This document shows positions 3,035 through 52,582 of a stretch of 64,000 nucleotides of DNA, piece by piece. Source of the stretch: an uncultured Actinomycetes bacterium. GTDB taxonomy: Bacteria; Actinomycetota; UBA4738; HRBIN12. The stretch spans positions 8,573 to 72,572 of the forward strand of contig CAVYTE010000011.1 in the NCBI GenBank assembly GCA_963771385.1, given 5' to 3'. Position numbers and translations under genes: made by a program. Position 1 is the first letter of the stretch. Each line of letters opens with the position of its first letter. The notes beneath the pieces were generated by a model that did not search any database, was not told where the DNA came from, and was given only the letters and a program-made list of their open reading frames with translations.

Positions 3035-3408
3035 GCAGTGGTTGTGTTGGCCGACGCGGTGTAGCCGAGCAGCGTTGATGTCGTCCGCCGGGTCCTGGCC
3101 GTCGTGGCACTGACGCTCGCGATCCGGATCGTCATGTAGCCGATGACGCGCAACTTCGGTCCCGGCGGGGTACTCGGCGAGGATGTCGCTGCCTGATTGC
3201 ACCCGGGCGCGCCGCCGAGCGGCATCGGACTGATCGTCTTGTGAGGGCGCCGGCATCGATCATGCCGTGGCGATCGGCGACGGAGGCCTCGGAGAAGATG
3301 CAACGCCGTTGCTGCGTGGCGAGACAGCGTCACTCCTGCGGCGACGAAGCCAAAGGACCGCACCATGACTGGCCCGACTTCGCGATCGGCTTAGCTCCTC
3401 CTCGGGCG

Positions 3409-3533
3409 CCCCCGCTCGCTTAGCGGTGTGGCGCCGAAATACTTCGGGTTGGATGCGGGGACGCCCACGATGCGGATCCGGTCTCGCCCCGGAAGAATCG
3501 ATAGAGATGCGACAACAACGAAGGAGGTGAAGT
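3409..3533 (+). promoter_or_regulatory. conserved upstream element, copy C (core 3442-3481)
   Basis: Aligns with 4111-4257 over most of its length. The core CTTCGGGTTGGATGCGGGGACGCCCACGATGCGGATCCGG shares CCCACGATGCGGA with copies at 10692-10734 and 13806-13848. It ends in AACGAAGGAGG, the RBS of the SPW gene. Confidence 0.4.
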
Positions 3534-3536
3534 TTG

Positions 3537-3893
3537 ATGAACCCGAGGGCCAGAATGCAGGACTACGGCACGCTGATCGCAGGTGCCTACGCGGCGTTGT
3601 CGCCGATCTGGACCAGCACGACTGGCGAAAGCGGCGCTCTGTGGACCCTGATCGTGTTCGGCGCCCTGCTCGCCGGGACGGCACTCGTCTCGCTCGCCAG
3701 GCCGGACGTCCGCGCGACGGAGTCGCTCACGGTTGTGCTCGGGGCGCTGCTCTTCATCGCGCCGTGGGTGTTCGGCTACGCGGACCTTGAAGGCGCGTCG
3801 TGGACGTCGTGGATCGTCGGTGTCATCGCGGCGGCGCTCGGCGGGAGTGTGCTGGTAGCCAGCAACCGCGCCCAGCAGGCGACCCAGCACTAA
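3537..3893 (+). CDS. SPW repeat membrane protein
   Basis: AAGGAGG lies 9 nt upstream of ATG 3537 (the ORF track starts at TTG 3534). Four hydrophobic helices carry the repeated SP(I)W / APW motif (LSPIWTS, IAPWVFG). Confidence 0.8.
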   Translation: MNPRARMQDYGTLIAGAYAALSPIWTSTTGESGALWTLIVFGALLAGTALVSLARPDVRATESLTVVLGALLFIAPWVFGYADLEGASWTSWIVGVIAAALGGSVLVASNRAQQATQH

Positions 3894-3921
3894 CCGCGAC
3901 CAAAGCACGAACCCGCTGCCA

Positions 3922-3955
3922 GAACGGGACCGGCCGACGTCGGCCGGTCCCGTTC
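3922..3955 (+). terminator. perfect 34-nt palindrome (17-bp stem) downstream of the SPW gene
   Basis: GAACGGGACCGGCCGAC/GTCGGCCGGTCCCGTTC starts 29 nt after the stop. There is no U-tract, so it is a factor-independent terminator only tentatively. Confidence 0.55.
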
Positions 3956-4110
3956 GGCTCCACCTGTCGAACGACATCGGAGCTCGGCCCGCCGAGGCGC
4001 TCGTAAGCGGCGACGCCGCCCGAGATAGCGGCCGAAGAACCACGGAACCGCGAGATCGCACACGTGATCTTCATCACGACGAGGTGGTCGAGGTCCACTT
4101 CTCCTCACTC

Positions 4111-4257
4111 CGCCCGCTCGCGCTCGCGTAGCGGGAGTTGGCCAAAACACTGCGGGTCGGGTTCGGGTACGTCCACGATGCCGAGCCGGCCAACGCCGAG
4201 CACCATTGAACTCACTCCAACGAAGGAGGAGTCACGAAGGAAGCCCGAGGAAACACG
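4111..4257 (+). promoter_or_regulatory. conserved upstream element, copy D (core 4150-4189)
   Basis: CCCGCTCGC..TAGCGGG..CCAAAACACTGCGGGTCGGGTTCGGGTACGTCCACGATGCCGAGCCGG...AACGAAGGAGG is paralogous to 3409-3533. Confidence 0.4.
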
Positions 4258-4293
4258 ATGGCGGGACCCACATCCCGCAGGGGGGGACACGAT

Positions 4294-5118
4294 ATGCCTT
4301 ACGTCACCACCGAGGACGGTACCGAGATCTATTTCAAGGACTGGGGCAGCGGTCAGCCGATCGTGTTCCACCACGGATGGCCGCTCAGTTCCGACGACTG
4401 GGACGCGCAGATGATGTACTTCGTCCTGCGCGGGTACCGCGTCGTCGCTCATGACCGTCGAGGTCACGGCCGCTCGACCCAGAGCTCGGATGGCCACGAC
4501 ATGGACACCTACGCGGCCGACGCTGCCGCCGTCGTGGATCATCTCGACCTTCGCGACGCGGTCCATGTCGGCCACTCGACCGGAGGCGGCGAGGTCGCTC
4601 GGTACGTGGCCAAGCATGGAGGGGGTCGTGTGGCAAAGGCGGTGCTCATCGGCGCGGTGCCACCGCTCATGCTGAAGACCGAGGCCAATCCCGGCGGCCT
4701 TCCGATCGAGGTGTTCGACGGCTTCCGTGAAGGCACGGCCTTCAACCGGGCACAGTTCTATCGCGACGTCGCGGCCGGCCCGTTCTATGGGTTCAACCGT
4801 CCAGGAGCGACCGTGTCGGAGGGCGTCATCCTGAACTGGTGGCGGCAGGGCATGATGGGCGGCGTCAAAGCCCACTACGAGGGCATCAAGGCGTTCTCGG
4901 AGACCGATTTCACCGACGATCTCACGGCCATCGACGTCCCCACGTTCGTGATGCACGGCGACGATGACCAGGTCGTGCCGATCGGAGCCTCGGCCGAGCT
5001 GTCGATCAAGCTGGTGAAGAACGGCACCCTGAAGGTCTATCCGGGCTATCCGCACGGCATGTGCACGACCCACGCCGAAGTTATCAATCCCGACCTGCTG
5101 GACTTCATCCAGTCGTGA
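4294..5118 (+). CDS. alpha/beta hydrolase, non-heme haloperoxidase/arylesterase family
   Basis: [32 protein letters not shown], the nucleophile elbow GHSTGGGE, and a C-terminal HGMCTTH. An alternative upstream ATG lies at 4258. Confidence 0.9.
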
Positions 5119-5259
5119 GGCCAAGTGCCGGTTGGACTGTCCGGCAGCCGGCCGGCGCCTATGAGACAGGTCATGGAGCCTGAGTCCCTCGGGCGGTGAC
5201 GTTGCCGCACGACGCGATGATCGGCTCGAGCCGTCGGCTGAACACGGCTCCGCCTCCGG

Positions 5260-5427
5260 CTAGTGGCTGGTGATGTCCTCGGGATGTAGCCAGAGAAGGC
5301 GGCCCAGGGCGGTTTCCTTGGTATCGGGCTCGCACTCCTGGACGGTTAGGACATCAGCGCCGAACCCCTGAATCGTCTCCCAGTTCCGGGCTATGCCGGG
5401 CTGGCTATTCCAGGTGACCAATCTCAT
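5260..5427 (-). pseudogene. possible N-terminal remnant of an endonuclease/exonuclease/phosphatase (EEP) family gene
   Basis: A 55-codon ORF, MRLVTWNSQPGIARNWETIQGFGADVLTVQECEPD..., resembles the MRLxTWN...DVLxLQE start of ExoIII/EEP proteins and then stops. It is too short to appear in the ORF track. Confidence 0.3.
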
Positions 5428-5572
5428 CGCGGTGTTCTAACACGAAGCTTCTGCTTCTCAACCCTGCTGGCAAGATCGTGGAGGAGATCCGGCCGATCCG
5501 CGACGAAGCGTTGAAGCTCCTACACCAGTTCCTGGCCGGTCCGTAGTCTTTCGGCACTCCGACACCTCCTCG

Positions 5573-6313
5573 TCAAGTGTTCGAAGAACACGGATCGGCC
5601 TCCGGGGCCCAGACCTCCTCCTCAATCTGTTCGAGCGCCTGACGCGCGGCCTTCTGCTGGGCAGCCTTCTTCGAGGTGCCCCTGCCCGTGCCGTGAACGC
5701 GCCCGTCGATTACGACCTGCGCCAAGAAGTCCTTGCGGTCGTCTGCGCCGCCGGATTCGTCGATCGTGTACACAGGACGGAGCTTCGGAGACACGCGCGC
5801 GAGGAATTCCTGCAGTCGGCCTTTGTAGTCGTCGATGACCCGGCCCCTGGCGTACTCACGAAGCCGCTCGCCGAACCAACGGCGAACCATCGCGGATACG
5901 GTCTCGGCCCCTTGGTCGAGATGGATGGCTCCCAGCACAGCCTCAAAGGAACCGGCCAGGATGCTCGTCTTCTCTGGGCCACCGTGACCCTTCTCACCCT
6001 TGCCCAATAGCAGGTACTCGCCCAGATGAAGTTCATTCCGAGCGACCGTGGCGAGGTTCTCGTTGTTGACGACGGCCGCCCGAATCTTGGACAGCTTGCC
6101 TTCCGCGAGGGTCGGAAACTCGTGGTAAGTCAACTCGGCAATCGCCTGCCCCAGGATCGCATCGCCCAGGAACTCAAGTCGCTCGTAGGAATCCTTAGCG
6201 AGCCTCTCCTGGACGGCGGAGTCGTGCGTAGTCGCATCCCGTAACAACTGCTGGTCGTGAAAGCTAACCCCGAGCCCTTCTTCGAGTCCTTCGAGTGTTC
6301 TCATCTCCTCCAT
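5573..6313 (-). CDS. rnc: ribonuclease III
   Basis: RNase III signature ERLEFLGDAILG, a second acidic motif SFEAVLGAIHLD, and a C-terminal dsRBD (KGRLQEFLA...GTGRGTSKKAAQQKAARQAL). Strong RBS GGAGAAGGAGGAG before ATG 6313. Many A/T-ending codons. Confidence 0.9.
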   Translation of the reverse strand: MEEMRTLEGLEEGLGVSFHDQQLLRDATTHDSAVQERLAKDSYERLEFLGDAILGQAIAELTYHEFPTLAEGKLSKIRAAVVNNENLATVARNELHLGEYLLLGKGEKGHGGPEKTSILAGSFEAVLGAIHLDQGAETVSAMVRRWFGERLREYARGRVIDDYKGRLQEFLARVSPKLRPVYTIDESGGADDRKDFLAQVVIDGRVHGTGRGTSKKAAQQKAARQALEQIEEEVWAPEADPCSSNT

Positions 6314-6419
6314 GGAAGTTCTCCTCCTTCTCCCCCCGAGGTAGGCTCGCACAGCTCGCGTGCATTGCGCTGGACTCATCCACCGGTGAAAGGGGTCAGA
6401 AGACTGACCTCCTTTACCT

Positions 6420-6458
6420 AAGCGAGCTCGAGCATCGTCAACCCCAATCAACCCGTTG
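6420..6458 (-). promoter_or_regulatory. possible degenerate fifth copy of the upstream element, before rnc
   Basis: The minus strand reads CAACGGGTTGATTGGGGTTGACGATGCTCGAGCTCGCTT, followed by TAAAGGAGGTCAG. It shares CGGGTTG, a G-run and ACGATGC with copies C and D, but the spacing is 3-4 nt shorter. Confidence 0.25.
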
Positions 6459-6621
6459 GAATCGCGGAAGCCGAAGGCCAGACGGGTGAGGAGCCGGCCG
6501 CTACTTGCGAGAAGGACCGCCCACTCGCCGCGATATGCTTCGCTGTCGTGCGCGACCGCCACAAACATCCGCCGGCCGGCAGTCTGGTACATACGCCGCT
6601 CGATCGCGCGTCTCCTGCCGG

Positions 6622-8013
6622 CTACTCGTCGAGATGGCTTCTCCCTCCCTGTCGCGGCGGCCTGAACCGCACGAAGGTCCTCCTCATCAAACGCTGGATC
6701 GGCCCGAGGACGCGCTCGGAGATCTCCGTCGACGCCGCCTCCACGACCGGGTTGAGGACACGCTCTCGGGTTCGTTGGTACGTCTCGACCACGATCGCAC
6801 CCGCGGCGACTCCGACCCCGATCGCGAAGGCCGTCTCGACTGCTCGGGCCTGCAGTGACTCGCGTACGCCTTCGCTTTCCGCCAGTAGCGGAAGCAGCGT
6901 GGCCGGAGAAGGCAGCAGCGGAAGGATCGCGGGAACCGCCCACAGTGCCGATGGAACCCATGAACGATTCGAGAGCAACCCCGCGATGACACCGATCGCT
7001 AGTGCCGCGAGGAACGTTCGCGACCCGAGCCCCATCTCGGCCGTCAACGGCGTGAGGCCGCGACCGAATATGGCCGCGATCGCGCCGAGACCCCCCACCG
7101 CCAGCAGCGAGCGACGGGGCACCCCGAAACTGCAGGCGTTGAAGCCGACGGCGACCACCGCTGCCGCGACGATCACGAAGGATGGCCACTCGAGCGGACC
7201 ACTCGCCCTAATCCGAAGGTGGACGTCCAGTCCGTCACCGAGGCTGAGGATCAGGGACACGGCCCCAGCTATGGCGGTGCCGACCAGGGCGACCTCCGCG
7301 AGCCGCGCCACTCCCGACGTGACCGACCCATCGATGAGGTCGTGCATGCCGACCACGAGCGCGTATCCGGGAAGGAACCGCAGCAAGCTGCCGGTCAGGA
7401 CGAGGCTCCCGTGGATCGGCAGAACGACCATCGCGAGCAACACCACAACCAGCGTGGTCGCGCCGACGCCGACGACGACCTGGAAGAACGACGACAGTCC
7501 GCTTCGCCCGAGCCGATCGAGCGCCGGCTGGATCGCGAGCCCGATCGCCAGCGCGACCATCGCGTCGAGGACGCTACCCCCGAACATGATGGTCACCGCG
7601 AACGTCATTGCCGCCGGAGCGCCGAAACGCAGCCACTCGGGGTAGGAGTGCCCGCTGGCGGCGATCCGATCGAGCTCTGCCTCAGCTGAGTCCAGATCCG
7701 CTCGGCCATCGCCGATGTCTCGGACGAGGATCGCTGCGGCGGCAAGCCTGTTGAAGTCCGAGCTCCACCGGCGCACCGCACGGATCGCTGTCGTGGCCTC
7801 GGCATCACCTGGCGAGACGTAGGAGACCATGACCGTCGAGTACGAGATCACGGCGTCCGCTTCGGGGAGTCCCAGTGCACGCAACGCGACGCGCAACCTA
7901 CCCTCGACCTCTTGGGCCTGCCCGCCGCTGGCGAGCATGACGACGCCGAGGCGAAGCGCAACCCGGACCGCACGCCGGCCCGCTGCCGCGGCTGGGACCG
8001 AGGACGTCGTCAC
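6622..8013 (-). CDS. threonine/serine exporter family protein (ThrE-like, fused DUF1212+DUF3815 architecture)
   Basis: 463 aa. The soluble N-terminal part (GLPEADAVISYSTVMVSY) is followed by about 10 hydrophobic helices. Lies 12 nt downstream of the mannosidase gene. Confidence 0.8.
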   Translation of the reverse strand: MTTSSVPAAAAGRRAVRVALRLGVVMLASGGQAQEVEGRLRVALRALGLPEADAVISYSTVMVSYVSPGDAEATTAIRAVRRWSSDFNRLAAAAILVRDIGDGRADLDSAEAELDRIAASGHSYPEWLRFGAPAAMTFAVTIMFGGSVLDAMVALAIGLAIQPALDRLGRSGLSSFFQVVVGVGATTLVVVLLAMVVLPIHGSLVLTGSLLRFLPGYALVVGMHDLIDGSVTSGVARLAEVALVGTAIAGAVSLILSLGDGLDVHLRIRASGPLEWPSFVIVAAAVVAVGFNACSFGVPRRSLLAVGGLGAIAAIFGRGLTPLTAEMGLGSRTFLAALAIGVIAGLLSNRSWVPSALWAVPAILPLLPSPATLLPLLAESEGVRESLQARAVETAFAIGVGVAAGAIVVETYQRTRERVLNPVVEAASTEISERVLGPIQRLMRRTFVRFRPPRQGGRSHLDE

Positions 8014-8025
8014 GTGAAGTCCCGC

Positions 8026-10632
8026 TCAATGAGGCTGGAGGTCGAACGCCGTCATGAAGTTCAGGGCGGTCTGGACTTGGTCGGCGTTCAACTCGGCGGT
8101 CTTGGTCGATTTCGGCAGGTGCACCACGTATTCGATGCCGGGGACGAGGTGGAAGTAGTTGTCACTGAAGGTCGCGTCACAGCCGTCGAGTTCCACCGCG
8201 ACGGCGTATGCGAATGCCTCCGAGACGATCCCCAGTCGGAAGTTGTCACCCTCGTCGGTCACGGAAGCACGAACCTGTGGCGCTGAGAATACGTAGCTCT
8301 TCGGAGCGACGAAGAGGTGCACGCCGCGGCTGACGGTCGCTCCGCGATCAATGACCGAGTACGCGAGGTAGTGCTCGTTCTCACCGCCACGAATCTGATC
8401 GGTGAAGTCGGCGTCGACCGCGCACGCAACCGATTGCGCGGGAACGCTGACGCGCTTCTTGCCGGCGATGACAACACGGTTCGCAACGTCGTAGAGCGTC
8501 CATTCCACGTCGACGCTGGCCGTGTCGCGCCGGTCGTTGTTGACATGAATCGCGACCTTGTTGCCCTCGGCGAGGGCGGATGCCATGACCGGCGCAAACG
8601 CGCGCTTCAGGCTGTACTGCTGCGCCTTCCAGCGGCCGTAGTAGTCGACACCGGCCCAGGACACCGTGGGCCAGCAGTCGTTGAGCTGCCAGGCCAGGTA
8701 TCCCATGCAGTCACCGGTCTGACGCCGGAAGTGCTCGACGCAGGTGGCGGTGATGACGGCGTTGACGGCCTGGGTCGCATAGACGTAGGTCGCGAAGTCG
8801 GTCGGGAGGTGGAACTCCCGGTCGACGTAGGTCTCCAGGATCTGGTTGCCTTCATGGCTCTTCTGGTGTTGGAGCATCACCTCGCTGTACGGACTGCGGT
8901 CGTCGGCAACCGTGAATGCTTCGATGGTCTTGTAGTCGGGGTAGCTCTGAAAGCCGATCTCCGTCAGGAACCGGGCGTTGAGTTGACGGATCTCCTCGTA
9001 CGGGCGCCGGCCATCGACCGCCAGATAGTAGTGGGTGTCTCCATCGGCGGTCCCTCGCAGCATGTCGGACACTTTCACCTCCCCGCGGGTATCGCTGATG
9101 GGTGATCCCTCCACCCAGCTGGTCTGCGGGTCGAGAGCGGTGACGAGCGGGGTCATCACGTCGTAGAAGAGCGTGACGATATCGGATTTCAGTGCGGAGA
9201 CGTACTGCTCGGGCAGCACCTGCTGATCAGAACCGCCCAGCGCCTCAAGCGCTTCGCGCGCCTCGGGGTCGCTGAGGATGTTCAAGGTGAGTTCTACCTC
9301 GTTGTTCCCGCTCCACAAGGCGAGCGACGCGTGGTTGCGGGCCCGTTTGACATTGTCGGTGACCTCGGCACGCACGTTGTCGATGAAGGCATCGTCGACG
9401 GGATAGAACGCGGAAGCGAACATGAAGTCGTGGAACAGCAGTATCCCATGCTCGTCGCAGAGGTCGTAGAAGTAGTCGTCGGGGTAGACGGCGCCTCCCC
9501 AGATTCGGATGAAGTTGAAGTTCGCGTCAACGCTGTCGCGAACCATCTTCCGGGCGGATTCCTCTGACCGTCGGGCGAGGATGGCGTCGGGAATGATCAT
9601 GTTGGAGCCCTTCGCGAAGATGCGGGCCCCGTTCACCTCGAACACATAGCTGCGCCCGATGTTGTCCTTCTCCCGGACGAGTCGAACCTCCCTGAGGCCC
9701 ACCTTCACCAGCTTTTCGCCGAGGATCGAGTCGCCGTCAAGGAGCCGTGCCCGCACCCGGTACAGCGGCTGGTCGCCCTGACCGGCGGGCCACCACAGCT
9801 TCGGCCCGGGCACCGGCGCCGTGATCGTGTTGAGGTCACCGTCGGCGAATGCTTCGGTTCGCTCGAAAACGACATTCCCGTCAGGATCTTCAACGGTCAA
9901 CTCGATCTTCACGTCACCATGCGTTGCCAGTCTTTCGATCTCGGAGCGGACTTCGAGGACGACAGCGCCGTCTTTGTGGTGCTGCTGCACGTACAGGTCG
10001 GCCAATCGTGCGACATCGTGGCCTTCGATGTAGATGGGACGCCAGATCCCGGAGTCGGGCAGGCTCAGTCCCCAATCCCACCCGAAGCTGCAGGCGGCCT
10101 TTCGGATGTGCGTCAGTCCTCGCGATCCGGGGTTCTCGGCTTCTACCTTGTGCACGAATCGGACGGGAGACCCGAACGAGATTGTGATTTCGTTCTCGCC
10201 CAAGCGGAGCACGTCAAGAATCGGGACGCGGTACGTGCGGTGCATGTTGTCGGTCGTCGCAACGACTGTTCCGTTGACGGTCACCGTCGCGAGCGTGTCG
10301 AGCCCTTCGCAGCAGAGCGTGACCTCGTCCCTGTCGAGGAGTTGCTGGTCGACGGTGAACGTGCGCGTGTACTCGTAGTCCTTGTCAAAGATTGCTTGGA
10401 TGGCAGACTCTTCCGCGCGATAGTAGGCGTCCGGGACGAGACCTGCGGCCAAGAGGTCGGAATAGACCGTTCCGGGCACGTGCGCATCGACCCACGAATT
10501 GTCTTCGGTGCTGCGCATTCTCCATGGGCCGTTCAATTCCAGTCGCACGTGTTGTGATACAAGCCCGTCCGCAGCGCCCGTGACGATCCCCACCTTGCCC
10601 GCCAAGTCCTCCATTCGGCCATCGGATGCCAT
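8026..10632 (-). CDS. beta-mannosidase, glycoside hydrolase family 2
   Basis: 868 aa. N-terminal LELNGPWRMRS...WVDAHVPGTVYSDLLAAGLVPDAYY, then CCEGLDTLATVTVNG, FGWDWG and IRIWGGAVYPDDYFYDLCDEHGILLFHDFMFA, all typical of GH2 mannosidases. RBS AAGGAGGAG. G+C is visibly lower than in the flanks. Confidence 0.9.
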   Translation of the reverse strand: MASDGRMEDLAGKVGIVTGAADGLVSQHVRLELNGPWRMRSTEDNSWVDAHVPGTVYSDLLAAGLVPDAYYRAEESAIQAIFDKDYEYTRTFTVDQQLLDRDEVTLCCEGLDTLATVTVNGTVVATTDNMHRTYRVPILDVLRLGENEITISFGSPVRFVHKVEAENPGSRGLTHIRKAACSFGWDWGLSLPDSGIWRPIYIEGHDVARLADLYVQQHHKDGAVVLEVRSEIERLATHGDVKIELTVEDPDGNVVFERTEAFADGDLNTITAPVPGPKLWWPAGQGDQPLYRVRARLLDGDSILGEKLVKVGLREVRLVREKDNIGRSYVFEVNGARIFAKGSNMIIPDAILARRSEESARKMVRDSVDANFNFIRIWGGAVYPDDYFYDLCDEHGILLFHDFMFASAFYPVDDAFIDNVRAEVTDNVKRARNHASLALWSGNNEVELTLNILSDPEAREALEALGGSDQQVLPEQYVSALKSDIVTLFYDVMTPLVTALDPQTSWVEGSPISDTRGEVKVSDMLRGTADGDTHYYLAVDGRRPYEEIRQLNARFLTEIGFQSYPDYKTIEAFTVADDRSPYSEVMLQHQKSHEGNQILETYVDREFHLPTDFATYVYATQAVNAVITATCVEHFRRQTGDCMGYLAWQLNDCWPTVSWAGVDYYGRWKAQQYSLKRAFAPVMASALAEGNKVAIHVNNDRRDTASVDVEWTLYDVANRVVIAGKKRVSVPAQSVACAVDADFTDQIRGGENEHYLAYSVIDRGATVSRGVHLFVAPKSYVFSAPQVRASVTDEGDNFRLGIVSEAFAYAVAVELDGCDATFSDNYFHLVPGIEYVVHLPKSTKTAELNADQVQTALNFMTAFDLQPH

Positions 10633-10691
10633 GGTCTCCTCCTTGCGATCGACTGGTCACGCTCTCTTGCTGCTCGATGCTGCCAGTCAGA

Positions 10692-10734
10692 GGACGGCTA
10701 CGCATCGTGGGCTCCCCCAAAGTCACTCCGAAAG
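10692..10734 (-). promoter_or_regulatory. conserved upstream element, copy A (before beta-mannosidase)
   Basis: The minus strand reads CTTTCGGAGTGACTTTGGGGGAGCCCACGATGCGTAGCCGTCC. The 19-nt TGGGGGAGCCCACGATGCG is identical to 13820-13838. It lies 73 nt upstream of the mannosidase ATG. Confidence 0.45.
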
Positions 10735-10860: not shown

Positions 10861-13741
10861 TTAAGCACCTGACGGTTCGCCGAGCGCCGCCGTCAGCTGC
10901 GAGCGGGAGCTGATCCCGAGCTTGCGGTAGCTGCTCGTGAGGTGGACCTCGACCGTCCTCGGGGTGACGAAGAGCGCCTGGGCGATCTCTCGGTTGGTGG
11001 GGCCTTCGGCCGCCAGCTGCGCGACGCGCCGCTCGCTCGGGGTGAGCGATTCGACGCCGGTGAGCGAGATCCGCCGGGGCCGCGCGCCCGTTGCGAGCAG
11101 CTCGGTCTCGGCGCGGGCGGCGAGCGGGACGGCGCCGCAGAGCGTCGCGAGCTCGAGCCCCCGCCGCAGCTGTTCGCGTGCCTCCGTGCGGCGGTTCGCT
11201 CGGCGAAGAGCCGCCCCCAGCTCGCTGCGCGCCTTCGCGTGCTCGAGCTTGGCGGGCGAGTCGGCAAGCACCTCGACCGCTTCCTCGAGCTGCGCGAGCC
11301 CTTCCTTGCCGCCCTCGATCAGGCCCGCCGCGCGCAGGGCCGCGCCGAGCGCCCGCGGCGCGCCCCAGGTCCGCGCGAGCTCGAGCTCTTCGGCCGCCAA
11401 CCGGCGGGCCTCGTCCTCCTCGCCGAGCTGCAGGAGAGCGAGCGCCGCCTGCGATCGCCAGGCCAAGAGAGCCGGATTGCGGCCTCCGACGGACTCGAAA
11501 CGACGACCGGCCGCGAGCAGCTCCGCGACGCCGCCGGCCAGGTCGCCGCGCAGCAGGCGAAGGCGCGCGCGCCTTTCGGAGAGATGAATGGCGATGGCGC
11601 GTGTCGGGGAGGGATTCGACGCGGGCCAGCGCTGCCGCGGCCTCCTCGAGCTTGCCCTGCTCCATCAGGGCGTCGGCGAGGAAGGGAGCCAGGAACGCCG
11701 CGAGGAGACGAGTCCCCCACGTCTCGGTTGCGGCGAACGCCTCGCGGCAATCGGCTTCCGCCTCGGCCAGCTCGCCTCGCCACAGGAAGGCTTGCGCGCG
11801 AAAGTTCTTGGCCACGGCGAAGGTGTGGATCGAACCGCGCCGGTGGGCCTCGGCGAGTGCGTCGTCGTAGGCGACCACGGCTTCGTCGAGGTCCGCCCAC
11901 GCGAGCACGGCGGCGGCGAGGAGAAAGGTCGCGCGCCGGTGCCTCCCTGATCAGCGTTCCTTCAGCTAGTGCACGACGGGCGAAGGGGACGACCAGGCCG
12001 GCCGGCGCGCCTGCCCGCGCGTCGTGGTAGGCGAGCAGCGCGAGCAGCGTCTTCTCGCCGAGGGTCGTTTCCCCCGGTCGGTTGCGGATACGCTCCAGCC
12101 GCTCGACGGCCTCGTGGTAGAGCGACGGCTCGGTGATGGCGTTCATGATGAGCACAGCCTCGAGCATGCGTTCGAGCTCGGGGGCGGCGCCGGCGAGCTC
12201 GCCCAGCGCTTGCGTGAAGACGGCGACCGACTCGTCGCCGCGCCAGAAGACGAGCTGGTGGCCGAGCAGGAGCGCGGCCTTGGCTCTGGCGACGGGGTCG
12301 CCGAGCAGCCCGTGCGCCTCCCGCAGGTGGTCGACCGCGGCGTCGCCGCTGACGAGACCCTCGACGGAGCCGAGCTCGAGCAGCAGGTCGGCGCGCTCGG
12401 CGGCCGGGGGTGGCTCGGCGAGCGCGCGGCGAAGGTAGGCGACGGCGCTCTCCGCGGCACCGCGCGCGCCCGCCCGGCGTCCGGCCTCGCGGAGCACCGC
12501 GACGACCCACGGATCGCCGGAGCGGGGTGCGAGCAGCAGGTGCGCCGCCACCCGTTCGGGCTCTGCCCCGGCGGCCTCGAGCAGCCGGGCCGCCCGTGCG
12601 TGTCCGCTGTCGCGCTCGGCGGGGGTCAGCGCCTCGTAGACGGCCGCCCGGATCAGCGGATGCACGAACCCCAGCGGCGGCTGCGGGCGCAGGACGTCGA
12701 CCCGGGCGAGCGCGAGCGCCGCCTCGGAGGCGGCCTGCTCCTGCAGGTCGGCGAGCACGGCCGCCTGATCGCGGGATCGGCGTCTTCGCCAAGGACCGCC
12801 ACCGCCTGGGCGAGCCGCGTCGCCTCCGGCGGGAGGCGGGAAAGGCGCATCGAGGCGATGCGCGACCCGGCCTTCGCCTCGAGCGAGCGAAGCTGCGACA
12901 CGTTCTCCTTGGTGGGGGCCAGGTCCTCGGCCACGATCGCGTGCACGAGCTCGCGCAGGAGCAGCGGATTGCCGCCGGTCTCCTGGTGGCAGGCGGCGCA
13001 GAAGGCGTCGTCGGCATCGGGCAACGTCTCGCGCAGCAGGCGGGCGGCGGCCTCGGGGCTGAGGGGAGCGGGCTGCACGATCGTGGCGAGCGGGTCGGAG
13101 AGCAGCTGGCCCACGAGGCTCGGGTCGGCTCCCGGCTCCTCGGGCCGGAGACCGACGACCACCCAGGCGTCCAGCCCCTCCATCCGCGGCAGGAGGTAGG
13201 CGAGCCACCGAAGCGACAGCAGGTCGCACCAGTGCAGGTCGTCGATCGCGAGCAGGAGGCGCGCGCGGGCGGCGACGTTGGCCGTCAGCCAGTACAGGCC
13301 GTGCAGCGTCGCCAACGACGAGTCGGCGGCAGGGGAGGCCGCGAGCTCGGCGGGATCGAACAGCGGCGCCGCGAGCCCCGCCGCGTCGCCGAGCAGCTCG
13401 GCTCGTTCCTGTTCGGGCAGGGACGCGAGGAACGGCTCGAAGAGCTGGCGGACCACGCCGTAAGAGAAGGTGTGCTCGAGCTCGCTGCCGCGTGCTCCGA
13501 GGACCTGCATCCCGGCCGCCTGGCCCGATGACTTCGCCTGCGCGATCAGCGCGGTCTTGCCGATCCCGGGTGGTCCCTCGAGGGCGAGGAGATGACCGCC
13601 GGCCTGGGTCGCGTCGCTCAGGGCCTCGAGCGCCGCCAGCTCGGCGTCGCGCTCGAGCAGGTGCGAGCGAGCCGAGAACGGCTGCTGAGGCACCAGCGTG
13701 CTCGCCTCCTCCTTGGGGGGCCTATATGGGAACAGCCCCAC
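10861..13741 (-). pseudogene. large ATP-binding LuxR-family (LAL/MalT-like) regulator with three frameshifts
   Basis: The N-terminal P-loop (LEGPPGIGKTAL, ORF 12653..13741), the TPR-like middle (ORFs 11319..13229 and 10385..11908) and the C-terminal LuxR HTH (LTPSERRVAQLAAEGPTNREIAQALFVTPRTVEVHLTSSYRKLG, ORF 10861..11466) lie in different frames. The joins are near 12775, 11940 and 11603. Confidence 0.85.
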
Positions 13742-13805
13742 CGGGACTCTACGCCCGTGCCCTTAAGGCCGCCCGCGCGCTCCAGGGTGTGGGACCAGCC
13801 AAACA

Positions 13806-13848
13806 CTACGGAGTCGCTCTGGGGGAGCCCACGATGCGGAACCGTTCC
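13806..13848 (+). promoter_or_regulatory. conserved upstream element, copy B (before the oxidase 5' fragment)
   Basis: CTACGGAGTCGCTCTGGGGGAGCCCACGATGCGGAACCGTTCC. It is inverted relative to copy A. Confidence 0.45.
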
Positions 13849-13951
13849 GGTGACCCTCATCATGCCCGTATGGACGGCGAACCCGCGGCTTCAACTGTGC
13901 ACGCGCTGATCGGGCCTTCCTCCCAGGCCGAGTGCCAGCGGTAGGCGAGCC

Positions 13952-14090
13952 TTGACACGCTTTCCGCCCTCTCCGCTCAGGCCGTTCGTGGATGCGCTCC
14001 CGGTCGCACCGCGTTACGAGGTCAACGAGCCCACTCGCCTGACGATCCCGATCGAGACGACGACACACCGCTTCCATCGGGATCTCGCAG
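13952..14090 (+). pseudogene. 5' fragment (about 45 codons) of a CotA-type multicopper oxidase
   Basis: LRPFVDALPVAPRYEVNEPTRLTIPIETTTHRFHRDLAAPV matches the CotA N-terminus (LEKFVDALPIP....YYEVTMEECTHQLHRDLPPT). Similarity stops before the expected WGYNG. Confidence 0.7.
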
Positions 14091-15734
14091 CGCCCGTGAC
14101 CGGGCCCGAACGCCCCGACGCTCGGCTCCCGAACGCTGGAGCGCGCCGCCGGCCTTCGGGCGAGCCACCCCCCCTCCCTCGAGAGCCGGGGTGGCGCGCG
14201 TGGGGGTGGGCGACGCTCGGGCTGGTCGCCGCCGGCGTCGCGATCCATCAAGCGATCGTCGACTCGGACGCGCAGTCCCCGATCCTGCGGTGGTTCCAGG
14301 ACCTGCGGACGCCCGCGCTCGTCGACCTCGCTAAGGTCTTCGATGCCCTGTGTGACCCGCTCGTGATCTGGATCGTCCGCTTCGTCGTCCTCGTCATCGC
14401 CGCGCTCACCAAGCGGTGGCGACACCTGGTCACGATCCTCGCCCTGTACGTCGTGGTCGACTTCCTGGACACGATCCTGGCCGCCCAGCGCCCCGAGCCG
14501 GAGGGGGTGAGCGTCCTCTCGACCAACGCCACGACGATCTTTCCGTCGTTCCCCGTGGCCGCCCTGTCCGTGACCCTGTTCGGAGCGGTGATGGTGCTGG
14601 CACCCTCCGGACGACCTCGCAGGCTCGCCCGGGCGGGCGTCTTCGCGATCTTGGGGCTCGTCGTGCTCGCCCGACTGCTCCTGGGAGCGGACCACCCGGT
14701 GGACGCGGTGTATTCGCTCCTGCTCGGCTGGATCACCGTCGGGTTCGCGTTCGCCTTCTTCGTCCCGGAGGACGTCTTCCCCGTCTCGTACGCGCGAGGC
14801 GGGAAGATCGGCGCACCTGGACCTCGGCGGGGCGCGGGGCGAGGCGATCATCGCGGCGGTCCGCGACCAGCTCGGCTTCACGGTGACCGAGATCGAGCCG
14901 TTCGGGCTCGCCGGCTCGGGGGGCTCGAGCCCGCTCCGGATGCGCGTCGCCGAGATCGACGGGCACCTGTTCGGGAAGATCTACTCGACCAGTCACCTGC
15001 GGGCCGATCGTTGGTACAAGGTCGGTCGCACGATCCTGTACGGGCAGCTCGAGGACGAGGTCCCGCTCGGCTCGGTGCGACGTCTCGCGCTCTACGAGGA
15101 CTACGCGCTGCGGCTGCTGCGCGACGTCGGGATCGGCGTCGCGACCACGTACGGCATCGTGGAGCTCACGCCCGACCGCGAGTACATGCTGGTGACCGAG
15201 TTCTTCTCGAAGGCGACGACGCTCGGCGACGCCGAGGTCGACGACGCGATCGTCGACGAGGGGATGGACCTCGTGCAGCGGCTGTGGGCATCGGGTCTGG
15301 CCCATCGCGACCTGAAGCCCGCGAACATGCTCGTCCGCGGCGGCCACCTGCAGCTCGTCGACGTGTCGGGGCTCCAGGTACGTCCGACCCCGTGGCGCCA
15401 GGCCGTCGACCTGGCGAACATGATGTTGACCCTGGCCCTGAGGAGCGACCCCGATCGCGTGTACGGACGCGCGACGGCGGTCTTCTCCCCCGACGACGTC
15501 GCCGAGGCGTTCGCGGCCGCCCGCGGTCTCGCCATCCCGACCCAGGTGACCGAGAAGCTGAAGGAAGACGGCAGGCCGATCTCGGAGCGGTTCCGCGAGC
15601 TCGCGCCCGATCGTCCTCCGGTCTCGATCCAGGTGTGGAGCGTGCGTCGCGTCGCGCTCACTGCCGGCGCACTCGTCGGCGCGCTCGCGCTGGCGGCGAT
15701 GGTATGGGCGACCCTCGCGATCGGTCTGGACTAA
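14091..15734 (+). pseudogene. PAP2-like membrane domain fused to a lipid/LPS-kinase-like (RIO/Kdo-type) domain; 5' end replaced, one frameshift
   Basis: Frame-2 membrane part with PAP2-like motifs (AAQRPEPEG, IFPSFPVAAL, GADHPVDAV) up to FPVSYARGGK. It continues in frame 0 as AHLDLGGARGEAIIAAVRDQLGFTVTEIEPFGL...LAHRDLKPANMLV...VDVSG (ORF 14883..15734). The join is near 14808. Confidence 0.75.
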
Positions 15735-15735
15735 C

Positions 15736-16061
15736 CGGGTCTCGGACCTCAACGAGCTCGCGGATGCGATCCGTCGCGTCGGCGAGGGGCGGATCGGTGC
15801 TCGATCCGGTGGTCGTGTTCCATGTTGGTGAGCCGGCCCCGCCGTGGGGACGACTCGCTTGCCGAACTGAGCGAGCGCGAGCGAGAGGTGCTCGCGCTCA
15901 TGGCCGAGGGGCGCAGTAACCAAGCGATCGCCGAGCGACTGTTCATCACGGAGCGGACAGTCGAGAAGCACGTGAAAGGGATCCTCGCGAAGCTGGGGTT
16001 GGCCGAGAGCCCCGAGGATCACCGTCGAGTCCTGGCGGTGCTCGCGTACCTGCGGACGTAG
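15736..16061 (+). pseudogene. C-terminal remnant of a NarL/LuxR-type response regulator (no receiver domain, two frameshifts)
   Basis: VSDLNELADAIRRVGEG (frame 1), GSVLDPVVV (frame 2) and LVSRPRRGDDSLAELSEREREVLALMAEGRSNQAIAERLFITERTVEKHVKGILAKLG (frame 0). It starts 2 nt after the kinase stop. Confidence 0.7.
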
Positions 16062-16980: not shown

Positions 16981-17106
16981 ACGGGAATCGACCGGAAACT
17001 GAATCCTCAGGTCAGCGCACCTTCTCCGCCTCCGCCGCAGGTCATAGACTCGGCCCGGACCACACTCTCAAGGTGGAGACACGGGTTCGAACCCCGTTGG
17101 GACTAC
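16981..17106 (+). repeat. tRNA-3'-end-like repeat, copy 1 (identical 45-nt core 17062-17106)
   Basis: The core ACACTCTCAAGGTGGAGAC-ACGGG-TTCGAAC-CCCGT-TGGGACT-AC has a perfect T-stem/T-loop and a 7-nt acceptor-like strand. The ~80 nt upstream are about 75% similar to copy 2. No complementary 5' acceptor strand lies upstream. Confidence 0.7.
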
Positions 17107-29245: not shown

Positions 29246-29373
29246 ACGGGAACGGCTGAAGCATCGAATCCGCAGGTCAGGCACCCGATCCGGCCAACGC
29301 CGCAGGTAGCGAGATCGGCCCCGAGAACACTCTCAAGGTGGAGACACGGGTTCGAACCCCGTTGGGACTACCA
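29246..29373 (+). repeat. tRNA-3'-end-like repeat, copy 2 (identical 45-nt core 29327-29371, followed by CA giving ...ACTA-CCA)
   Basis: Carries the same 45 nt as 17062-17106, and here the acceptor-like strand is followed by an encoded CCA. The upstream ~80 nt are related to copy 1 (GACGGGAA, GAATCC.CAGGTCAG, CGCCGCAGGT, TCGGCCC). Confidence 0.7.
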
Positions 29374-51691: not shown

Positions 51692-52582
51692 CTAGCAGGA
51701 GACGACGGAATCGGCTCCCGGCCCACCCCGGCAGGTGTCGTCGCCCGCGCCGCCGCGGAGCTCGTCGTTGCCCGATTCGCCGCGCAGCACGTCGTCGCCG
51801 GGCCCACCCTCGAGCTCGTCGTCGCCCGAACCGGCCTGCACGAAGTCGTTCCCGTCGCCACCGACGAGTCGGTCGTTGCCGGTCCCCGACTGGAGGAGGT
51901 CGCCCCCGCCGCGTCCGTCCAGCCTCAGGTTCCCGGTGAACGCGCCGGCGGTGATCACGTTCGCCGAGGCTCCCCCCTTGACGACGGCCACCTCGATCGA
52001 GCCGAGCGTCGTGACGTCATCCGCCTGCACCAGGCGCAGGCGGGCGTCGTTCACCTGCCAATCGCCGTCGCCTGCGGCCGAGACGGTGTCGCGTCCCTTC
52101 CCGCCCATCACCTCTCCCCCACCCGGTCCGGGGACCAGGTGATCCCGCCCCTTCCCACCCAGGAGCGAGTCGACGCCGCCGCCGCCGAGCAGGTCGTCCC
52201 CGATCTCGGAGCCGATCAGCCGGTCTTCCCCCTCCTGCCCCGAGACGGACGTCGCAGCCAGGCTGTCGAAGGCCGAACCCGTGACGTCAGCGAGGCTCAC
52301 CCGATCGAACCCCGCGCCGGCGAACACGAGGATGCGCCGCAGGTCGGCGCACGGGGTGGGTCCGCCCGACGGCTGGGTCTGGTTCACGGTGAGGTCGCCA
52401 CCCTCGCACCGAACGGTGACGTCGTCGGCGTCGGCGGTCCCTGTCACCGTGAGGATGCCGTCGGCGACGTTCGCGACGATCGTCCCCGCCCACGACGGCG
52501 GGATCAGTACCGCCGACGCCACGACGAAGGCGACGAGGACGAGCGCGCGTCGAGTGATGGTGACGCTCCGCCCGATCGGCAC
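51692..52582 (-). CDS. secreted calcium-binding protein with RTX-type GGxGxD repeats
   Basis: Signal-anchor RRALVLVAFVVASAVLIPPSWA. C-terminal repeats GGDGNDFVQAGSGDDELEGGPGDDVLRGESGNDELRGGAGDD. Confidence 0.8.
   Translation of the reverse strand: MPIGRSVTITRRALVLVAFVVASAVLIPPSWAGTIVANVADGILTVTGTADADDVTVRCEGGDLTVNQTQPSGGPTPCADLRRILVFAGAGFDRVSLADVTGSAFDSLAATSVSGQEGEDRLIGSEIGDDLLGGGGVDSLLGGKGRDHLVPGPGGGEVMGGKGRDTVSAAGDGDWQVNDARLRLVQADDVTTLGSIEVAVVKGGASANVITAGAFTGNLRLDGRGGGDLLQSGTGNDRLVGGDGNDFVQAGSGDDELEGGPGDDVLRGESGNDELRGGAGDDTCRGGPGADSVVSC

Follow-up and report, generated by a model that had tools for sequence, protein, structure and literature searches.

A long promoter-like element before unrelated genes in soil Thermoleophilia, with a neighbouring STAND/LuxR-type protein as its candidate activator

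A 64,000-nucleotide stretch of contig CAVYTE010000011.1, from an uncultured Actinomycetes bacterium (hereafter the window; G+C content, 67.8%), carries four copies of a non-coding element, each lying before a different gene. We consider it probable that this element is an activator-dependent regulon promoter, for which the best activator candidate is a STAND/LuxR-type protein (LAL) encoded between two of the copies; the transcription start, the activator dependence, the identity of the activator and the signal to which it responds are all read from sequence. In the mechanism that we propose, the element would be a DNA-level promoter module of approximately 110 bp, comprising a CTAGCGG block (around -85), an AAACACT block (around -70) and a core (approximately -61 to -33) of the form CGG-N9-GGGG-N4-CCACGATGC, whose GGGG..CCAC half would form a pseudo-dyad with its centre near -43. 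At the tail end of this core, ATGCGA would serve as a poor -35 hexamer and be followed, after a spacer of 17-18 nt, by a non-canonical -10 hexamer, cAnnAT, most often CACGAT. Transcription would start 6-8 nt past the -10, in very many cases on an ATG itself, so that leaderless mRNAs or short leaderless upstream open reading frames (uORFs) would result. An activator would bind the conserved upstream 60 bp, and dependence upon it is expected because both hexamers are weak. The candidate, i.e., the adjacent 960-aa STAND/LuxR (LAL, MalT-like) protein, would switch on a stress- or dormancy-type regulon, and new copies of the promoter would arise through duplication of a unit made up of the 3' end of the regulator gene and the promoter, element 2 having retained a stub of the regulator.

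The initial annotation of this DNA, made from the letters of the sequence, had proposed that the stretches 3409-3533 and 4111-4257 are related. Formal local alignment bore this out, with a score of 61 as against 16.1 +/- 2.3 for dinucleotide shuffles (maximum 27, n=2000; z = 19) and a best score of 28 for random windows from the same contig. Independently, a repeat finder assembled 3437-3483, 4145-4191 (79%) and 13801-13847 (74%) into a single gapless family. A weight matrix built on the 30-nt core and scanned over the 64-kb window returned four sites of 34-41 bits, with the next best site at 15 bits. Of the further cores that had been suggested, the one at 13806-13848 proved genuine (37.9 bits). 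The copy at 10.7 kb is also real, albeit on the minus strand (10702-10730), the plus-strand likeness noticed at 10692-10734 not being the element; the candidate at 6420-6458 was rejected by the weight-matrix scan. One family thus stands, as had been claimed, ahead of four functionally unrelated genes, i.e., those for an SPW membrane protein, a hydrolase, a GH2 mannosidase and a multicopper oxidase, and each copy is directed at the gene downstream of it. The parts of the four elements are as follows.

3409 to 3444, plus strand: upstream blocks of element 1 (TTAGCGGTGTGG ... GAAATACTT), aligned to the CTAGCGG and AAACACT blocks of relatives.
3445 to 3473, plus strand: core of element 1, CGGGTTGGATGCGGGGACGCCCACGATGC (weight matrix 36.5 bits; exact pattern match), with the GGGG..CCAC pseudo-dyad inside it; its last four bases open the -35-like hexamer ATGCGG at 3470-3475.
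3493 to 3498, plus strand: predicted -10 hexamer of element 1, AAGAAT, 17 nt past ATGCGG, placed by the near-invariant A..AT alignment columns.
3507 to 3530, plus strand: ATG at the predicted transcription start of element 1 (offset 33 after the core), with a putative leaderless uORF of 7 codons that overlaps the Shine-Dalgarno (SD) sequence of the SPW gene.
4111 to 4152, plus strand: upstream blocks of element 2 (GTAGCGGGAGTTGG ... CAAAACACTG), from alignment with relatives and element 1.
4153 to 4181, plus strand: core of element 2, CGGGTCGGGTTCGGGTACGTCCACGATGC (34.3 bits); its last four bases open the -35-like hexamer ATGCCG (4178-4183).
4201 to 4206, plus strand: predicted -10 hexamer of element 2, CACCAT, from the A..AT alignment columns and the hexamer table; predicted start near 4213.
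13809 to 13837, plus strand: core of element 3, CGGAGTCGCTCTGGGGGAGCCCACGATGC (37.9 bits), divergent from the LAL start approximately 68 nt away.
13858 to 13863, plus strand: predicted -10 hexamer of element 3, CATCAT, after an 18-nt spacer.
10702 to 10730, minus strand: core of element 4, CGGAGTGACTTTGGGGGAGCCCACGATGC, the best-scoring copy in the window (41.1 bits).
10677 to 10682, minus strand: predicted -10 hexamer of element 4, CAGCAT.

Relatives of the element were collected in two scans. An exact-pattern scan with one genome per species gave 50 loci, amongst which the true relatives share sequence well past the pattern and all belong to Thermoleophilia-type metagenome-assembled genomes (MAGs); the remaining loci were coding-sequence coincidences (e.g., a Bacteroidales gene) and were set aside. 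When JGI metagenomes were scanned in turn, 68 loci were returned, approximately 58 of which are family members. The resulting set holds 100 copies, of which 57 are distinct and 45 non-redundant (<90% mutual identity). Two further sets were defined by how they were retrieved: 24 copies without any requirement downstream of the core, and 54 copies through the upstream half only, with the in-core ATG not demanded. Across public genomes and metagenomes, all copies lie on Thermoleophilia-type soil contigs, and the closest relatives of the window itself are soil MAG contigs titled Thermoleophilaceae, Solirubrobacterales, Gaiellaceae or "Actinomycetota".

The copies are mutually 60-80% identical and conserved in functional patches. 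Their extended consensus reads ..CTAGCGGtgGGg.gac.AAACACTg CGGnTCGGATcnGGGGgCgyCCACGATGCGagcc....(spacer)..GAGCAcgATCGG, with the core blocks CGG, GGGG and CCACGATGC in strict gapless register across copies. CCACGATGC itself was present in 49 of the 54 copies found via the upstream half, the other five having CCACGAGGC, CCACGACGC, CCACGGTGC or CCACGGCGC. The patches CTAGCGG, AAACACT, CGG, GGGG and CCACG recur every 10-12 bp or so, which puts them on one face of the helix. Where two copies stand back to back in divergent pairs, they have the central CTAGCGG region in common.

The initial annotation had suggested a shared leader with an internal SD-like box and AUG. Were the element such a cis-acting RNA (a 5' leader, riboswitch or uORF attenuator transcribed from further upstream), the G-run that stands 7-8 nt ahead of the in-core ATG in nearly all copies would find a ready use, the similarity by eye of the peptides read from that ATG (MRARP.SSTIG) would be accounted for, and so would the metatranscriptome contigs that cover the core. 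A search of the whole window against Rfam 15 at the gathering score, and of 3300-4400 at E values up to 10, found no match in the elements, which is in keeping with the earlier impression that they belong to no described class. RNAalifold analysis of 24 and 45 non-redundant copies found only three invariant G-C pairs (-3.3 kcal/mol) and no compensatory change. A GC-rich inverted repeat upstream of AAACACT that had seemed to covary was no more stable than its shuffles (mean z = -0.32) and was discarded. The G-run followed by ATG, although found in all window copies as described, is not a conserved start codon, since the ATG is changed to AGG, ACG, GTG or GCG in 5/54 copies. Two copies (L020 and L052) have one extra spacer base that keeps the cAnnAT box and breaks the reading frame of the in-core ATG, and the changes within the box are non-synonymous in that frame. 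Neither start codon nor frame of the in-core ATG is therefore conserved as a uORF or leader-peptide attenuator would need, and a conserved peptide from this ATG was ruled out by the frame breaks together with the non-start codons. The upstream part shared by both copies of divergent pairs is likewise awkward for RNA elements, and the RNA contigs are single low-depth fragments selected by the search itself. We regard a cis-acting RNA as very unlikely; the boxes behave as DNA signals.

One of these signals lies downstream of the core. In the 24 copies whose retrieval made no demand on this region, conservation reaches 90% or more in the three columns that form A..AT, exactly 20 nt past CCACGATGC. 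Amongst the 45 copies the hexamer is CACGAT in 22, CACCAT in six, CAGCAT in six and AAGAAT in two, the rest being single variants. Positions 2 (A), 5 (A) and 6 (T) are fixed while positions 3-4 vary freely, for which reason we read cAnnAT as a -10 hexamer; A2 and T6 stand at a fixed place, as a sigma-70-type -10 demands, and position 1 is C, not T. At 17-18 nt upstream of this box lies ATGCGA or ATGCGG, which matches TTGACA at approximately three of six positions.

The position of start codons agrees with this reading of the hexamers. In 25 of the 45 non-redundant copies an ATG, which formed part of no search pattern, occurs 31-33 nt after the core, i.e., 6-8 nt past cAnnAT. Twelve of these ATGs open ORFs of 55-565 aa that have coding-type GC3 (G+C at third codon positions) and lack an SD sequence, examples being ABC1/UbiB, MFS, alpha/beta hydrolase and AI-2E proteins and a small "HFGHRE" protein; outside these 12, the intact multicopper-oxidase orthologue of contig L019 has a TTG start at the same offset. 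Genes that start further downstream are preceded by an SD-like box in 19 of 27 cases. The ORFs without an SD sequence begin at one position and those led by one at variable distances, which is the pattern expected if a fixed transcription start gave leaderless mRNAs. Transcription most likely begins approximately 32 nt downstream of the core, as judged from these ORFs, which would leave most of the conserved element upstream of the transcript. Counted from this predicted start, GGGGnnnnCCAC forms a weak dyad centred near -43 (position computed from the sequence).

Promoter specificity might instead come from an alternative sigma factor of general-stress or extracytoplasmic-function (ECF) type, with, e.g., CGGnTC as -35 and CCACGATGC as -10, the LAL gene being only a member of the regulon. 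The target list does resemble a sigmaB-type general stress regulon, and the strict gapless register of CGG, GGGG and CCACGATGC is what such a factor could produce. Known sigma motifs, however, were found in 0/45 copies, whether the SigB/SigF motif GTTT-N-GGGTA (spacer N12-17), the ECF motif GGAAC-N-CGT or a sigma-28 type; GGGTAY occurs in only 2/45 copies, out of register. The cAnnAT box with its fixed A2 and T6 is what group-1/2 sigma factors read, and the long ORFs without SD sequence begin 6-8 nt after cAnnAT rather than after CCACGATGC. Furthermore, the LAL gene is found near the element time and again, and genes for sigma or anti-sigma factors are not. An alternative sigma factor as the source of specificity therefore seems unlikely to us.

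The LAL gene lies in the window between elements 4 and 3.

10861 to 13741, minus strand: LAL regulator gene, encoding an AAA_16 STAND ATPase with TPR and a GerE/LuxR helix-turn-helix (HTH) domain; delimited by tblastx/tblastn to intact orthologues of 959-965 aa and by Pfam, and read with frameshifts in the window.

Of 80 loci retrieved by the motif, 57 have a LAL orthologue (65-100% identity) next to the element, and in many of the remaining 23 the contig is too short for its presence to be judged. Since nothing but the DNA motif was used to retrieve these loci, the linkage counts as an independent observation, and it is the main reason for naming the LAL protein as the factor that would read the conserved 60 bp upstream of the -35. 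In the usual layout one co-directional copy lies 48-60 nt past the LAL stop, pointing away from the gene, and a second copy is divergent from the LAL start; in the window, the core of element 4 is approximately 130 nt past the LAL stop (10861), wider than usual. From this arrangement, the LAL protein probably serves the promoter. Against the MalT model it matches in the HTH only (24.5 bits; cut-off, 537), and its HTH weakly matches the DosR chains 1zlk and 3c3w (E ~1e-4). Searches of PDB and NCBIfam for a characterised close relative gave generic HTH matches alone, and LAL regulators have been called a poorly studied family (PMC3282765).

The gene that most often follows the copy at the LAL stop (L009 1751-1966, L014, L020, L113 and others) encodes a conserved 63-99-aa protein (..AANHFGHRE[ST]DGIVVDLFWNR..FYHPF) that has no match in Pfam or NCBIfam. 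In other lineages this place is taken by a gene for a 65-aa peptide with two transmembrane segments, ending in ..RQHDPPMNPKGWRD. Both products are candidates for the regulator's partner or its first target.

A number of observations weigh against an activator-dependent promoter read by the LAL protein. A scan of 3300-4400 for consensus sigma-70 promoters found none, the hexamers being weak; this fits a weak activator-dependent promoter, though it is not positive evidence for one. By eye, only 6-7 of the 11 symmetric positions of the pseudo-dyad match. CCACGATGC owes its invariance in part to the search patterns, as does ANNAT in the metagenome set. The LAL gene, for all its adjacency, could itself belong to the regulon and not encode the regulator. 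Lastly, a rhizosphere metatranscriptome (run X27) yielded one perfect contig of 179 nt, 3302-3480, that extends from upstream of element 1 through its core, and run X31 yielded a contig matching 6707-6916 of the related contig L100, which takes in the LAL 3' end and the core and reaches the -10. Both RNA contigs have a depth of 3-4 and cannot be oriented; they could represent read-through, antisense RNA or DNA carry-over, and a simple promoter does not explain them.

The public RNA runs gave single low-depth contigs alone, in which no start site could be read. Run X27 contained no other contig across 5400-20000. In the runs matching L100 the LAL 3' end was covered and the target gene was not; for the Hsp20 locus, a search for RNA runs found none. 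As for the runs labelled "GENOMIC RNA-Seq", their behaviour is that of DNA. Elsewhere on L100, approximately 30 nt at 7404-7434, downstream of a small membrane-peptide gene, reached a word depth of 200-650 in three soil metatranscriptomes, compared with 2-5 around it; this is probably a fragment common to an abundant conserved RNA, and ARAGORN found no tRNA there.

As to the quality of the DNA sequence, the G-run at 4274-4280 has one extra G, at 4280, relative to every spanning contig in five Illumina-based runs, and comparison with intact orthologues reveals several frameshifts in the LAL and oxidase genes. The window was probably assembled from long reads and contains homopolymer indels, and these frameshifts are for that reason likely artefacts.

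Of the 41 copies with enough downstream flank, 39 are followed by a co-oriented, coding-like ORF that starts within 20-285 nt, so that placement relative to genes is non-random, as the initial annotation had supposed. In the window, the downstream genes and a feature between them are the following.

3537 to 3893, plus strand: SPW-repeat membrane protein gene, target of element 1 (Pfam PF03779, E 1.9e-19).
3924 to 3953, plus strand: GC-rich hairpin past the SPW gene, likely a terminator dividing the two transcription units (from sequence; weak hairpin-type Rfam matches only).
4294 to 5118, plus strand: alpha/beta hydrolase gene, target of element 2 (Pfam PF00561, E 5.7e-34).
13952 to 15919, plus strand: multicopper oxidase gene, target of element 3, frameshifted in the window (N-terminus matching the L019 orthologue; frame plot).
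8026 to 10632, minus strand: GH2 beta-mannosidase-type gene, target of element 4 (Pfam Glyco_hydro_2_N2, E 4e-53).

An identical SPW protein is encoded on 17 public contigs from ENA soil assemblies. Other strains, in which a different copy of the promoter precedes the hydrolase gene, retain its start at 4294 (MPYVTTEDG; the L002 variant). The identity of the oxidase rests on the intact 606-aa orthologue of L019, which has Cu-oxidase_2/_3 domains. The first ~25 codons of the GH2 ORF (10560-10632, minus strand) begin with MASDGRMEDLAGKVGIVTGAADG and resemble the Rossmann N-terminus of a short-chain dehydrogenase (SDR); by this resemblance, they may be a relic fused together with the promoter. 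In L002 the same GH2 gene is called 116 aa shorter.

Across the family, the genes downstream of the element encode Hsp20, Fe/Mn superoxide dismutase (SOD), a BON-domain protein, YflT, SPW and DUF308 proteins; multicopper oxidase, several alpha/beta hydrolases and an FrsA-like esterase; glyoxalase, a luciferase-like oxidoreductase, SDRs and an FMN-dependent dehydrogenase; CNNM, AI-2E, MFS, MMPL, chromate and ABC permease transporters; and ABC1/UbiB as well as two small unannotated proteins. Judged by annotation, this gene set is of stress or dormancy type.

A trace of how the promoter spread is preserved in the window directly before element 2.

4022 to 4105, plus strand: relic (84 bp) of the C-terminal LuxR-type HTH of a LAL protein (EIAAEEPRNREIAHVIFITTR..VVEVH), by blastx against residues 908-928 of the LAL protein of L044 (62% identity, E 1.2e-5).

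Because this relic of the LAL 3' end precedes it, element 2 is read as having arisen by duplication. In L025, the copy ahead of the SPW gene likewise shows alignment with the LAL 3' end at the DNA level. At least these two copies thus descend from the copy that follows the LAL gene, duplicated together with the stub. Homologous promoter DNA related by descent thus stands before non-homologous genes, as expected of a reused or duplicated promoter.

The neighbourhood is a mosaic. Contigs from the same soil assemblies (L001-L008) share blocks at 97-99.6% identity and differ by replacements. In other strains 4061-4261 is replaced by 746 bp that include an FtsH fragment and a different promoter copy; elsewhere 40 nt are inserted at 4261/4262, or 5243-8025 is lost; in L001, 8027-13930 is inverted, so that copy 3 drives a ThrE-family gene. 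The strain breakpoints (2744, 4055/4060, 4261/4262, 5230-5316, 8026/8027 and 13930) have no common sequence at their junctions, and an integron or miniature-element idea suggested by them was dropped for want of a common motif. Part of the mosaic may be assembly chimerism.

Such surroundings, with gene fragments (FtsH, SDR, LAL stub), strain-specific breakpoints and an inversion, would suit a dispersed repeat or miniature mobile element (MITE, REP, integron attC-like) that has no dedicated regulatory role, as would the very fact that the element is multi-copy. A mobile repeat fits poorly, however, with the lack of terminal inverted repeats, target-site duplications or a common breakpoint sequence, and with the uniform orientation to the downstream gene. 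Nor does it account for conservation that is patchy, helically periodic and kept across Thermoleophilia families, with the -10 and ATG at fixed places, and the 64 kb hold only four copies, all within 10.5 kb of the LAL gene. We hold a mobile repeat to be highly improbable, and favour a regulon promoter.

Several neighbouring observations concern an SDR gene. In L025 (6336-6930) a copy of the element lies directly before the NNAG motif of an SDR gene, displacing its first ~90 codons; homology to the SDR gene of the window starts at window position 2493, and L002-L008 retain only a 92-aa SDR fragment. From the L025 gene and this fragment it appears that insertion or fusion of the promoter truncates genes. 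A bolder proposal is that the promoter downstream of the LAL gene, together with the final ~100 bp of that gene, acts as a self-propagating wiring device, repeatedly copied onto new genes and sometimes truncating them, each being recruited as a leaderless mRNA into the stress regulon of one STAND/LuxR sensor. The L025 SDR gene and the SDR-like N-terminus on the GH2 gene would be candidate examples of such truncation. We put this forward as a speculation that is rather doubtful; if it were true, the strain mosaic around the window would be the copying process caught in action.

Other repeats were noted in the region. A borderline tRNA match at 17040-17105 (Rfam, 29.5 bits against a gathering score of 29; none by ARAGORN) shares with 29315-29371, 12.3 kb away, a 57-nt direct repeat that is 95% identical and covers the T-arm and 3' end. 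Fragments resembling tRNA 3' ends also lie near elements in L012 (~7470-7510) and L001 (~468-557), and these tRNA-like fragments may be attachment-site remnants of an integrated island. Within a minus-strand coding region, 51710-51844 is a direct repeat with a period of 27 nt, made up of four overlapping 54-nt copies (67-70% identity to the reference), with a weaker fifth copy at 52169-52222; it likely encodes a protein with a 9-residue repeat.

Thermoleophilia are abundant soil Actinomycetota, on whose gene regulation a limited literature search found almost no published work. Their regulon promoter, as read here, is undescribed, though of an ordinary kind. It offers a ready, testable regulon that would link a long promoter motif, a candidate STAND/LuxR master regulator and a target list resembling dormancy or general stress responses, with many downstream genes predicted to be expressed as leaderless mRNAs. 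The motif can also be used in annotating stress genes and transcription starts in MAGs.

Amongst known systems, the MalT-dependent promoters of the E. coli maltose regulon come close. MalT combines a STAND ATPase, TPR and a LuxR-type HTH, and its promoters have a poor -35 with helically spaced conserved patches. The LAL protein is built in the same way, with an AAA_16/STAND ATPase at its N-terminus, a helical/TPR sensor and, at its C-terminus, a LuxR-type HTH, and the element has a poor -35 with several patches, approximately one helical turn apart, over some 60 bp upstream of or overlapping it. However, the MalT box GGGGAKGAGG was found in 0/45 copies at up to one mismatch, and the element is thus only analogous to a MalT site, not strictly one. 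The LAL protein, moreover, matches the MalT model in the HTH only, the targets are of stress type rather than for sugar use, and the host belongs to the Thermoleophilia.

In class II activation of the LuxR type, the activator occupies a lux box whose centre lies near -42.5. The element resembles the sites of LuxR/TraR class II activation in that a LuxR-family HTH is paired with a partly dyad-symmetric GGGGnnnnCCAC (flanked by GnATC..GATnC) at approximately -43, abutting the -35. Unlike those sites, the dyad here is weak and shorter than the 20-bp lux box, the LAL protein has no autoinducer-binding domain, and the conserved blocks reach to approximately -90. The DosR (DevR) regulon of Mycobacterium tuberculosis likewise has a NarL/LuxR-type HTH and counts Hsp20/alpha-crystallin and other dormancy or stress genes as targets, but the 20-bp Dos box TTSGGGACTWWAGTCCCSAA was found in 0/45 copies at up to five mismatches, and DosR is a two-component response regulator whereas LAL is a STAND protein. 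With the SigmaB/SigF general-stress promoters of Firmicutes and Actinobacteria the element has YflT, Hsp20, BON/OsmY-like, SOD and membrane stress proteins as targets in common, yet their GTTT-N12-17-GGGTA motif is absent (0/45) and the -10 is of the housekeeping type.

Similar promoters before non-homologous genes, both within a genome and across relatives, have been described as putative mobile promoters, i.e., promoter reuse; those sets are defined by near-identity and often tied to insertion sequence elements (PMC3575422). The copies described here differ from these: their identity is 60-80%, their conservation falls in functional patches, they are linked to a single regulator gene, and one of them bears a direct trace of duplication. 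In the LAL 3' stub that precedes element 2, the spread of a promoter by duplication is cleanly exemplified; none of these findings overturns existing ideas.

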